From a virus (lineage: Duplodnaviria > Heunggongvirae > Uroviricota > Caudoviricetes > Peduoviridae), in the IMG/VR virus record IMGVR_UViG_638275546_000001: a DNA stretch of 30,728 nucleotides, one strand, 5' to 3'. Of this stretch, positions 22,770 through 25,764 are shown piece by piece. How positions within the stretch are numbered: position 1 is the stretch's first letter; every line of letters begins with the position of its first letter. The notes beneath the pieces are model-generated. The model did no database searches and was not told where the DNA came from. It saw only the letters and a program-made list of their open reading frames with translations. A program made the translations under genes and the position numbers.

Positions 22770-22849
22770 TGTTTTGTTTTATCTGTTTGTTTTATAAGGA
22801 TAAATTAAATAAAATGGCACCATTAACAAAACCGGAAGAGGTGCTCGCG

Positions 22850-23068
22850 ATGTTTCATTGTCCTTTATGCCAGCATGCCGCACATGCGCGTACAAGCCGC
22901 TATATCACTGACACGACAAAAGAGCGTTATCACCAGTGCCAGAACGTGAATTGCAGCGCCACGTTCATCACTTATGAGTCGGTACAGAGATACATCGTGA
23001 AGCCGGGAGAAGTCCACGCCGTGGGGCCGCACCCGTTGCCGTCAGGGCAGCAAATTATGTGGATGTGA
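22850..23068 (+). CDS. ogr: Late-gene transcriptional activator Ogr (C4 zinc finger)
   Basis: Start at internal ATG of ORF 22769..23068 (MFHCPLCQHAAHARTSRYITDTTKERYHQCQNVNCSATF..., 72 aa); CxxC...CxxxxC zinc-finger motif; recognised as P2 Ogr-like. Confidence 0.88.
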   Translation: MFHCPLCQHAAHARTSRYITDTTKERYHQCQNVNCSATFITYESVQRYIVKPGEVHAVGPHPLPSGQQIMWM

Positions 23069-23078
23069 TCACAAAAAT

Positions 23079-23105
23079 AGCCCCTCAGTCGAGGGGCTTA
23101 TTTAT
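23079..23105 (+). terminator. Rho-independent terminator after ogr
   Basis: AGCCCCTC-agtc-GAGGGGCT stem-loop followed by TATTTAT, about 10 nt after the ogr stop. Confidence 0.7.
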
Positions 23106-23341
23106 GGTCGATGTGGACGCTATGTGGACAGTGGTTGACATAAATCCATTTATATCATCAGGTTAGGTGCTTTTTTGTGACACCATCCCTGTCTTCCCCC
23201 ACATGATGTGGGGGTTTTTTTTATCAATTACTTACATGCAATCAAAAGTAAAAACAGTCACTTATCGAAAGCTGTAAGGGTTTGGAGTGGTTTCAAAATT
23301 TCTTGAGTGTGGACACTATGTGGACACTCAGAGGGGGAAAT
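23106..23341. other. attP: Phage attachment region (attP) with arm-type integrase binding repeats and an IHF-like site
   Basis: Position between ogr and int as in P2; four direct copies of TGTGGAC arranged as two pairs (23112..23129 and 23308..23327); IHF-consensus-like TATCAATTACTTA at 23221..23233; the core crossover sequence could not be identified by eye. Confidence 0.6.
23196..23222 (+). terminator. Strong GC stem-loop with T8 tract inside the attP region
   Basis: CCCCCACA-tga-TGTGGGGG followed by TTTTTTTT. Confidence 0.6.
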
Positions 23342-24322
23342 TTATAACGTCACTCCGCCTTTTAGTGGATTCAGAGCGACGGCATTTTGCAGGTAGTCAG
23401 GCGCAAGGTGCGCATAGGCCATCGTCTGCTGAATGCTCGCATGTCCCAGAATCTGTTGCAGTGCGATTATATTGCCCCCGTTCATCATGAAATGGCTTGC
23501 GAATGTATGCCGCAGGATGTGGGTTGCCTGATTGGGTGGTATATCAGGTTTCACTCTGCGTAAAATCCCGCAAAATTTCTCATAATCAACTTTGAATAAT
23601 TTGGCGCTTGCCTCCTCTTTAACTTTTTTCTCCAGTTCCTCAGAAATCGGCACGGTTCGCTTTTTACCGTTTTTGGTTTTCAGGAAGGTAACCCTGCAAT
23701 TTGTAATCTGTGCTGGTTTTAGCGTGGCAACTTCCGTCCATCTTCCTCCAGTGCTCAGACATAAAAGCGCGACAAGTAAGTCATCACCAGCCAAAACATT
23801 TAACAGTTTTTCGATTTCTGCTTTTTCCAGGAACGTCATTTCAGGGTTGGCCTCCGCCAGTGGCGGCAGTCCGTGAATTGGGTGTTGCCCGGAAAATTCA
23901 TCCAATTGAATTAATTTTGTGAACATGCCGGATAATCGGTACATGTCACGGTTTATCGTTGCGGCACTGATACCATCACGTAGTCGTATGGAACGATAAT
24001 CCATCAAAGCCCTTTTGCTCATCCGGCTCACTGGTATATCACCTATGCCGCTGATGGTTTTGAGTAGATGATTAAACTCTTTTGTTCCATGCTCGTGGTT
24101 TTGCCCGTGATATTTCCACCAGATGTCCAGCAACTCACTCAAAGTTCGGCGGTCTGCTCGCTGGCCTCCCCATTCTTTCTGACTGGCATTGGCGATTGTG
24201 TATCGCTCAAATGCTAGTGCTTCAGCTTTTCTTTCGAATTTCCTGCGGATGCGTTTTCCGTCGCGACCGCGAGGTCTAATGTCCACTTCATAGCGACCAT
24301 CATCGAGCTTCTTAATTGCCAT
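23342..24322 (-). CDS. int: Tyrosine integrase
   Basis: Start at internal ATG (MAIKKLDDGRYEVDIRPRG..., 326 aa) preceded by GGAGGG; C-terminal catalytic region with HxxR and terminal Tyr context (ILGHASIQQTMAYAHL); P2 Int-like. Confidence 0.9.
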   Translation of the reverse strand: MAIKKLDDGRYEVDIRPRGRDGKRIRRKFERKAEALAFERYTIANASQKEWGGQRADRRTLSELLDIWWKYHGQNHEHGTKEFNHLLKTISGIGDIPVSRMSKRALMDYRSIRLRDGISAATINRDMYRLSGMFTKLIQLDEFSGQHPIHGLPPLAEANPEMTFLEKAEIEKLLNVLAGDDLLVALLCLSTGGRWTEVATLKPAQITNCRVTFLKTKNGKKRTVPISEELEKKVKEEASAKLFKVDYEKFCGILRRVKPDIPPNQATHILRHTFASHFMMNGGNIIALQQILGHASIQQTMAYAHLAPDYLQNAVALNPLKGGVTL

Positions 24323-24391
24323 AAGAAAGCCCTCCGGCGCTGTATTCACCATCTTGGTAGCAAATGGTGAAAATGTAATCTTTATATAGAG

Positions 24392-24685
24392 TTAGCCAAT
24401 CCTTTTCGCGGAGTGGTTGGACTCTGTTGACTCTGGCCCAATGTGCGCGAGAGCCGGTGCGATTTGTCCTGCGTCCGGCGCGGTTTTATCTGTCATAAGC
24501 CATAGAGCATATTTTTGGAATGTGGGATGCATAGTGATTTTTAGCAAAGCTGTGCCACCGGGTTCAAAGTTTCCTCCTTCATATTTTTTAAGTGTGCTTA
24601 GCGGTAACTCTATGATTTCACAGAATTTTGATTGGCTTAGCCCTTCAGCCTCACGCAAGGCCTTAATCTTTTCGCTTAATTTCAT
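24392..24685 (-). CDS. C: Immunity repressor C
   Basis: 97-aa ORF with N-terminal HTH-like segment and C-terminal ...GQIAPALAH... segment resembling P2 C; divergent from cox across the switch region. Confidence 0.8.
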   Translation of the reverse strand: MKLSEKIKALREAEGLSQSKFCEIIELPLSTLKKYEGGNFEPGGTALLKITMHPTFQKYALWLMTDKTAPDAGQIAPALAHIGPESTESNHSAKRIG

Positions 24686-24821
24686 TTGACATGGTGACTA
24701 TATAGGGACTAAACTCCCTCAAAACTGGAACCTATATAGGTTACATTGATTTGAGAATAAACCAGCGTCTAAACGGTTTTGAGTGGTTTAGAAAGGGCTG
24801 GATCCTATGAGGGTACCATAT
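24686..24821. promoter_or_regulatory. Lysis/lysogeny switch region (candidate Pe/Pc promoters and operators)
   Basis: Intergenic between divergent C and cox; two TATATA-centred palindromes, tgaCTATATAGgga (24695..24708) and perfect 14-bp AACCTATATAGGTT (24729..24742), centres about 33 bp apart; TTGACA at 24686..24691. Confidence 0.6.
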
Positions 24822-25094
24822 ATGGACGCTGAAAATTATGTGATTCAGTATCCGCTTGATGCGGTTCATGTGGATAAATTTGCTGATTTATTAGGGAAGC
24901 CAAAGACAGCCGTCAGTGAAATGGTGAAGGCAAATAAATTACCAATTATTGAATTGCGTGATCCTTGCAAACTGAAGGCTCGTGCCGGTGAAAAATGGGT
25001 TTTCATTCCTGAGTTTAATCGCGCTGTACGTGAGGCGTTTTATAACCGACCGGTTGAACAGCGTGATGCATGGCTTTTGTGGATGGGGTTGTGA
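24822..25094 (+). CDS. cox: Cox-like excisionase / lytic-switch DNA-binding protein
   Basis: Start at second ATG of ORF 24807..25094 (GAGGG about 8 nt upstream), 90 aa; position and size as P2 Cox, with similar C-terminal ...RDAWLLWMGL. Confidence 0.75.
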   Translation: MDAENYVIQYPLDAVHVDKFADLLGKPKTAVSEMVKANKLPIIELRDPCKLKARAGEKWVFIPEFNRAVREAFYNRPVEQRDAWLLWMGL

Positions 25095-25096
25095 TT

Positions 25097-25267
25097 ATGA
25101 ATGAGCCGCGTTGTATTGCTCAGTTACTGCGTAACGAAAGCCCCAGGGCGATTGACTTCACCATCACCCACGGGAAGGGGCGCAAGGGAATCATTATCCG
25201 CACCAAAAAACAGAGTCCGTTAAAGAAGGCTCTGACCTTTCTGAAAAGCCGGAGGGTATGGAAATGA
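25097..25267 (+). CDS. Small basic hypothetical protein (early operon)
   Basis: ATG directly after cox stop (ORF track extends upstream to 25070); 56 aa, Lys/Arg-rich; overlaps B start. Confidence 0.5.
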   Translation: MNEPRCIAQLLRNESPRAIDFTITHGKGRKGIIIRTKKQSPLKKALTFLKSRRVWK

Positions 25268-25764
25268 CAGTGATGACGCTCAATCTCGTTGAAAAACAGC
25301 CAGCAGCTATGCGCCGGATAATTGGTAAGCATCTTGCCGTCCCTCGCTGGCAGGATACATGTGATTATTATAATCAGATGATGGAGCGCGAACGGTTAAC
25401 GGTTTGCTTTCATGCGCAGTTAAAACAGCGTCACGCAACGATGCGTTTTGAAGAAATGAACGACGTCGAACCCGAACGGCTGGTTTGTGCAATTGATGAA
25501 TTGCGTGGGGCATTCTCAAAACGCCGTCAGGTTGGCGCAAGTGAGTATGCATATATTAGTTTTTTAACAGTCAGTCAGCGTCGTACTTTATTTATGCATG
25601 CCGGATTGACTGAAAAAGAATTCAACCAGCCATACTGGCGAATTAATGAAGAATCATGTTACTGGCGTGATGCTTTATTCCGTGCATTACGTGAATTATT
25701 CAGCCTGTTTGAGTATGCACCGACAATTCTGACGTCGGTAAAACCAGAGCAATATCTGCATTAA
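25264..25764 (+). CDS. B: Replication protein B (helicase-loader-like)
   Basis: Start at ATG 25264 (MTVMTLNLVEKQPAAMRRIIGKH..., 166 aa) with GGAGGG upstream; recognised as P2 gpB-like. Confidence 0.85.
   Translation: MTVMTLNLVEKQPAAMRRIIGKHLAVPRWQDTCDYYNQMMERERLTVCFHAQLKQRHATMRFEEMNDVEPERLVCAIDELRGAFSKRRQVGASEYAYISFLTVSQRRTLFMHAGLTEKEFNQPYWRINEESCYWRDALFRALRELFSLFEYAPTILTSVKPEQYLH

Follow-up and report, generated by a model that had tools for sequence, protein, structure and literature searches.

P2 and WPhi are phages in which Cox is known to act at both a promoter region and an attachment site. The Cox of WPhi is reported to read a direct repeat of 12 nt between Pe and Pc, to repress Pc and to promote excision, and it does not bind the cox boxes of P2 (PMC5009727). 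On att DNA, WPhi Cox bends its target and multimerises (PMC7498355, PMC11963761). More generally, the Cox and Apl operators of P2-like phages 'tend to lie' between convergent start sites, and a tandem, head-to-tail layout with one helical turn per site is typical of directionality factors (PMC7498355).

Here we compare these systems with a stretch of 30,728 nucleotides (below, the window), which is the genome of a P2-like phage (Peduovirus). Over positions 22770-25300 it is 99.3% identical to Peduovirus P24B2, and phage WPhi aligns with ~94% identity over 85% of the same interval. A short element occurs in both the attP region and the lysis-lysogeny switch of the window, and the original prediction took the two copies to be candidate Cox boxes. 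As set out below, we consider it likely, from the comparison of sequences, that both copies are cognate operator sites of the WPhi-like winged-helix Cox encoded in the window, which would serve as both repressor and directionality factor.

Regulatory layout of the window

The gene order at the regulatory end is tail gene D, ogr, attP, int, C, switch, cox, B and A, and the int-C-cox order is the same in the window, P2 and WPhi. The following features are used throughout:

23069-23341: attP region, 273 bp
23112-23131, plus strand: Int arm-type direct repeats of the P arm, TGTGGACGC and TGTGGACAG
23180-23222, plus strand: approximate attP core, where matches of prophage-derived records begin or end
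23308-23327, plus strand: Int arm-type direct repeats of the P' arm, two copies of TGTGGACAC 11 bp apart, identical in WPhi
23342-24352, minus strand: int, tyrosine integrase, with 94-100% DNA identity to WPhi int
24392-24685, minus strand: C, immunity repressor of 97 aa with a helix-turn-helix
Between C and cox: switch, 136 bp
24686-24715, plus strand: early promoter Pe (TTGACA, 18-nt spacer, TAAACT), found by promoter scan and homologous to WPhi Pe (PMC1904263)
24698-24706 and 24732-24740, plus strand: putative C operators O1 and O2, direct repeats of CTATATAGG 34 nt apart
24810-24818, minus strand: predicted extended -10 of Pc, TGgTACCCT, placed by homology in a block conserved family-wide
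24822-25094, plus strand: cox, 90 aa, winged helix; the ATG at 24822 is the start annotated in P24B2

A second in-frame ATG is present at 24807, upstream of the annotated cox start. The Int arm-type repeats of the P and P' arms are the same repeat, with the consensus TGTGGAC(A/G)C. The attP core carries a terminator hairpin (CCCCCACATGATGTGGGGG, then T8) that was found by a terminator scan, and prophages of the window type sit immediately after cpxP, before fieF. The 3' end of cpxP encodes the sRNA CpxQ, so the core would re-create the CpxQ 3' end upon integration; an Rfam search with the attP core hairpin gave sub-threshold sRNA matches only. Next to the core, two blocks are common to all WPhi-like attP regions, whatever their Cox type (window 23223-23266): ATCAATNACTTACA adjoins the core, and AAAACAGNNACTTA follows ~28 bp on. 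They could bind a host factor or serve as additional Int sites within the P' spacer.

On the other side of int, O1 and O2 of the window have the positions and the spacing of O1 and O2 in WPhi, where the operators read TATTGGTGAC and are likewise 34 nt apart (PMC1904263). The operator of a P2-like C repressor (direct repeats that flank or follow the Pe -10, 22-34 nt apart) was considered as an identity for the shared element and rejected, the role being filled by CTATATAGG at 24698 and 24732. Three positions of this Pe/C-operator region are unique to the window among the relatives examined: 24697, left of O1, is A and not C; 24714, in the Pe -10, is C and not T (TAAACT vs TAAATT); and 24743, right of O2, is A and not C. 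These positions are C, T and C in each of the 43 related switch copies from the loci retrieved. In each of the 420 E. coli genomes and 16 phage records, the best match to the 140-bp switch has 97.9% identity. The three bases could amount to an operator or promoter variant, of an immunity or virulence type.

Pc is not detected by a consensus promoter scan of the window, so its position rests on homology with WPhi and on the conserved extended -10. The block AGG(G/T)TA(A/C/G)CA is conserved across the family, and its minus strand, TGnTA(A/C)CCT, has the form of an extended -10. According to PMC1904263, Pc of WPhi starts 60 nt from O2, and its transcript shares 82 nt with that of Pe. Transferred to the window by its alignment with WPhi, these distances would put the Pc +1 at about 24804-24805.

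The shared element

The 21-mers GGGTTTGGAGTGGTTTCAAAA (23278-23298) and CGGTTTTGAGTGGTTTAGAAA (24774-24794) share 17 of 21 positions on the plus strand, which reproduces both the coordinates and the count of the original prediction. When the match is widened by 2 nt to the left, AAGGGTTTGGAGTGGTTTCAAAA (23276-23298) and AACGGTTTTGAGTGGTTTAGAAA (24772-24794) agree at 19 of 23 positions, and the exact string GGTTTNGAGTGGTTT occurs twice in the window, once in each copy. The copies and one adjoining box are listed below:

23276-23298, plus strand: copy 1, AAGGGTTTGGAGTGGTTTCAAAA, in the P' arm of attP, with GGTTT at 23279 and 23289; candidate Cox site for excision control
24772-24794, plus strand: copy 2, AACGGTTTTGAGTGGTTTAGAAA, in the switch, with GGTTT at 24775 and 24785; candidate Cox operator
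24792-24801, plus strand: a possible further box, weaker than the others, AAAGGGCTGG, which follows the second GGTTT by 10 bp (from 24795) and abuts the predicted Pc +1

Each copy thus holds two GGTTT boxes, exactly 10 bp apart. The boxes appear to be arranged head to tail, with a form of roughly AA(G/C)GGTTT(G/T)G and then AGTGGTTT(C/A)(A/G).

Copy 1 lies within the 86-bp spacer that runs from the core to the P' arm and ends 9 bp before the first TGTGGACAC repeat; in the P2 GenBank record, a Cox protein_bind feature is annotated in the equivalent spacer. Between copy 2 and the cox ATG at 24822 there are 27 bp. These gaps bear out the earlier placement of the two copies, just upstream of the int-proximal repeats and just upstream of cox. 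Within the switch, copy 2 is located 32 nt past O2, between Pe (24686-24715) and the predicted Pc -10, and would correspond to about +11 to +31 of the Pc transcript. With the Pc +1 mapped to about 24804-24805, copy 2 falls between the convergent start sites of Pe and Pc.

Two further identities for the element were tried and rejected. It is not an Int arm-type site: the motif does not contain TGTGGAC(A/G)C, and the arm repeats are found elsewhere, at 23112-23131 and 23308-23327. Nor is it a cox box of P2 specificity (at least six copies per target), as the consensus TTAAA(G/C)NC(A/C) is absent from both window sites. With up to one mismatch allowed, this consensus has no match in 23222-23308 and one match in the switch, at the Pe -10, which is probably due to chance; as a control, the same scan of P2 itself finds boxes in both annotated targets.

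The Cox protein

The product of the window's cox gene scores 80.8 bits with the Pfam family PF10743 (Phage_Cox; cut-off 27.5) and matches P2 Cox (PDB 4LHF) with E = 3.7e-20. It shares 81% of its residues with WPhi Cox, from which its C-terminal half does not differ, and 41% with P2 Cox. The recognition-helix region reads GKPKTAVSEMVKANKLP in the window vs GKPETAVVKMVKENKLP in WPhi, with four differences (K28/E, S32/V, E33/K and A37/E). Residues 32, 33 and 36 of the window protein align with R29, R30 and D33 of P2 Cox, which have been probed by mutation (PMC3936717).

One residue outside this region sets the window protein apart. Residue 51 (24972-24974) is Leu, in DPCKLKARAG; it is Pro in all 49 related Cox proteins of the same type, and also in WPhi, SI7 and most other lineages. 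Leu51 is in the predicted wing region and might affect DNA binding or oligomerisation.

Comparison with WPhi

The window and WPhi have the same core and the same Int arm repeats; int is 94-100% identical between them, as is the left half of attP. Identity falls only in 23219-23318 (74%) and in 24369-24968 (54-80%), and the latter stretch covers C, the switch and the N-terminal half of cox. In the attP of WPhi, the P' patch reads ACCTATAAGGGACTGGAAGGGCTAC, and AAGGGACTGGAAGGGCTACAAAG takes the place of the copy 1 element. Arm and switch agree within WPhi too. Its P' patch ACCTATAAGGGACTGGA resembles ACCTAGAAGGGACTGGA of the WPhi switch, with a match of 16/17 between P' element and switch element.

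In the switch, the WPhi repeats CCTAGAAAGGACAGG...CCTAGAAGGGACTGG line up, column by column, with copy 2 and the third box of the window. We infer that these repeats are the 12-nt repeat read by WPhi Cox; the window element would then occupy the homologues of the WPhi Cox sites. The third box is a possible positional homologue of the WPhi repeat ..AGAAGGGACTGG. The window does not carry the WPhi-specificity repeat itself (about CCTAGAAGGGACTGG), an identity that was also tried: the homologous window columns read TCTAAACGGTTTTGAG and GTTTAGAAAGGGCTGG, and only the weak third box, among the window boxes, resembles the WPhi repeat.

Co-variation in other lineages

Further loci were obtained from species-representative genomes with a search based on a Cox alignment (38 loci) and from IMG/VR, which added more usable loci. 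Retrieval from IMG/VR by Int gave 17 usable loci; most prophage contigs there stop 3 nt past int and so do not include the P' arm.

Other WPhi-like lineages, too, have segments that match the phage's own switch, and the offset of these from the int stop is the same (-65 to -71). The clearest example is from Buttiauxella (L097), where GGAACCAGCCTGGGCCGTTTCAAA and GGAAGCATCCTGAGCCGTTTTAAA share 20 of 24 positions and the own switch ranks first in the scoring against all loci. Self-matches are weaker in Photorhabdus (L099, rank 3 in the same scoring) and in Kosakonia (L096, AACGGTCTGGAAGGGTTTTAAA vs AACGTTCCTGAGCGGTTTTGAA, rank 6), and the loci L027, L038, L039 and L041 also carry their own element at this offset.

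A best-HSP scoring of self vs non-self pairs over 32 loci works for the WPhi-like types and is insensitive for sites of the P2 type. As P2-type sites are short, degenerate box arrays that are widely shared, we limited the matrix of P' against switch elements to anchored 44-48-nt segments of WPhi-like lineages. In this matrix of 11 lineages (the window and WPhi included), the mean score is 15.5 of 22 for self pairs and 13.8 for non-self pairs (permutation p ~0.001). The window scores 18 with its own switch and at most 14 with any other, and four lineages whose Cox has the MIEKNKLP helix cross-match as a block. As a positive control, the P2-type lineages carry AAAGCCAT-like arrays, the known cox boxes, at both sites. 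In these results, site sequence co-varies with Cox specificity type; the discrimination between self and non-self is modest and partial because box II (GAG[C/T]GGTTT, or GCCGTTT) is common to several Cox types.

Conservation among close relatives

Conservation of the motif at the same two positions in related phages had been named in the original prediction as a check, and the motif is indeed present at both in all relatives of the window type. Copy 1 is kept in P24B2, FSL SP-004, L092, L004 and six copies from IMG/VR. The switch copies in IMG/VR are all identical (37/37, GGTTTTGAGTGGTTTAGAAA), and the attP copies there all read GGTTTGGAGCGGTTTCAAAA (6/6), one base off the window. In most relatives, the attP copy has GAGCGG where the window has GAGTGG, which reduces its match with the switch copy to 16/21. 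A degenerate form of the pattern has 41 other matches in IMG/VR, none of which has a cox-like gene nearby.

Among 5426 complete E. coli genomes, the P' arm is found at 95% identity or higher in 523 and the switch in 420. Some of this gap is explained by recombinant prophages, such as those in E. coli NZ_CP018948 (L213) and NZ_CP104509 (L214), which combine a near-identical P' arm (AAGGGTCTGGAGCGGTTTCAAAA) and int with other C/Cox variants. The recognition helices of these two recombinants read TEMIKANKLP and VEMIKANKLP, and the switches of such recombinants still hold GAGCGGTTTT or AAGCGGTTTTT. Such recombinants account for about 7 of 60 rows sampled evenly (H147-H150, H170-H172) out of 790 matching genomes. 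Since box II and the P' arm are common to several Cox types, the class of sites is broader than the immunity class, and the two do not correspond one to one.

Two related phages have a rearranged regulatory end. Phage fiAA91-ss (L087) has an IS21 transposase in place of cox. In Yersinia phage vB_YpM_22 (L088), extra DNA that includes a 78-aa ORF is inserted between the left half of attP and int, and its int-proximal region differs for this reason.

Alternative explanations

Cox binding at the element is a candidate assignment, and one may ask whether a different protein, namely the C repressor, Int or a host architectural protein (IHF, Fis), is bound at both places instead. The similarity of box II across several Cox types would fit such a protein, as would the family-wide blocks in the spacer between core and P' arm (ATCAATNACTTACA and AAAACAGNNACTTA), which are themselves perhaps host-factor sites. 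Each of the three proteins, however, meets with a difficulty. The putative C operators, two CTATATAGG repeats at the mapped positions of O1 and O2 in WPhi (PMC1904263), are unlike the motif. Int has TGTGGACAC as its arm sites and is near-identical in the window and WPhi, yet the element differs between the two phages. A host-factor site should not vary with phage immunity type in one host species, but the element does. We therefore regard another binder as improbable.

A second alternative is that two AT-rich regulatory regions resemble each other by chance, with no shared function. The original prediction had put the probability of a chance recurrence below 1 percent. Taken over the whole window, that estimate fails: there are 103 distinct pairs of 15-mers with at most one mismatch, vs ~38 expected in random sequence with the first-order composition of the window. 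It holds roughly when attP is compared with the switch: of 2000 shuffles that kept the dinucleotide composition, 16 gave a 17/21 match between the attP region (273 bp) and the interval from C to cox (24686-24806, 121 bp), for a p-value of 0.008 that was calculated after the pair had been noticed. The half-site pattern GGTTT-N5-GGTTT is not significantly enriched window-wide and so is uninformative by itself. Because the restricted p-value is post hoc, the case rests on the comparison of relatives, and this makes coincidence very unlikely: both copies are kept in all relatives of the window type; at these two positions, phages with another Cox type have other elements, several of which match within their phage; and the positions coincide with those known to bind Cox in P2 and WPhi (PMC5009727).

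Least probable of all is a role at the RNA level, in which one RNA-binding regulator or RNase would act on both copies in the leftward transcript from Pc (C-int). The geometry would allow this, with one copy in the 5' leader and the other 44-64 nt past the int stop if Pc reads through. Direct repeats, however, are unable to base-pair with one another, neither copy has a match in Rfam (which also disposes of a known RNA family as an identity), and the 10-bp periodicity and the homology to the DNA sites of WPhi and P2 Cox point to recognition of DNA.

Proposed action of Cox at the two sites

We thus favor Cox as the protein that reads both copies. In the window, the early operon begins with the gene for a winged-helix protein of the Cox family, related sites are present in the core-to-Int-arm spacer and in the Pe-Pc interval, and each site has tandem direct repeats about one helical turn apart, as would be expected of a system of the Cox/Apl type; across the 11 lineages, the site also co-varies with Cox specificity type. 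Protein family, positions, tandem layout and co-variation together support the candidate-box interpretation first put forward.

The following sequence of events can be proposed by analogy. When Pe fires, Cox would be made and would bind the switch copy (24772-24794) cooperatively, probably extending over the weaker third box at 24792-24801. The switch copy is just downstream of the predicted Pc start and next to the Pc -10, and Cox that binds there and spreads over the Pc +1 and -10 would shut Pc, so that synthesis of C and Int would stop. The same Cox would bind the copy in the P' arm (23276-23298), about one turn from the Int arm-type repeats, and bend the arm; the bend would favor the excisive complex on attR and disfavor integration. 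If Cox does bind both copies, commitment to the lytic cycle is coupled to prophage excision through a single 90-aa protein, as in P2 and WPhi.

Three broader suggestions are more speculative, and we are doubtful of them. The WPhi-like Cox proteins and their sites may make up at least 4-5 specificity classes, in which a ~24-bp bipartite operator of the P' arm and its counterpart in the switch are inherited as a split module around a near-invariant int. In addition, since box II (GAG[C/T]GGTTT) and near-identical P' arms are common to prophages with different C (L213, L214), the Cox of one prophage could act on a heteroimmune prophage that occupies the same cpxP site, and excise or derepress it. 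The natural variation might also yield a recognition code for directionality factors of the winged-helix kind.

The phage type is a common one in E. coli, Salmonella and Yersinia, and roughly 8-10% of the complete genomes of E. coli have a prophage of this kind at cpxP. The element provides a defined candidate operator for a so far uncharacterised Cox specificity class. Together with WPhi and the other lineages, the window belongs to a natural series of protein/site pairs that are a few residues and bases apart. Such a series is useful for understanding how winged-helix proteins that oligomerise recognise DNA, and for foreseeing cross-talk among P2-like prophages that share a host.

Comparison with known systems

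The Cox operators of WPhi are the nearest counterpart. They share with the window the Cox subfamily, the core, the Int sites, int, the homologous positions and the 10-bp box layout, and they differ in the box cores, which are GGTTT in the window and GGGAC, GCGAC or GGGCT in WPhi. The WPhi sites are backed by experiments; those of the window are predicted from sequence.

In P2, one small winged-helix protein similarly binds tandem boxes ~10-11 bp apart, which are placed over or close to Pc and also in the stretch that separates the attP core from the P' arm (PMC3936717). P2 Cox has at least six boxes of mixed orientation per site and footprints of at least 70 bp, whereas two to three boxes are visible at each window site. 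The P2 boxes overlap the -10 and -35 of Pc, while those of the window are mainly downstream of the predicted Pc +1.

Two systems are more distant. Apl of phage 186 is also a dual-purpose protein, both directionality factor and lytic regulator, but it is an outlier in sequence, has seven operators at pR-pL with another consensus and works in a CI/CII-type switch. The X1-X1.5-X2 sites of lambda Xis resemble copy 1 in that winged-helix protomers assemble head to tail on tandem sites by an Int arm-type site, and the arm is bent for excision (PMC7498355); unlike Cox, Xis has no role in the lysis/lysogeny switch of lambda, and there is no second copy of its sites at promoters. The window leaves the known picture of P2-like switches unchanged: dual Cox sites are already known from P2 and WPhi, and what is new here is the sequence version of the candidate sites.
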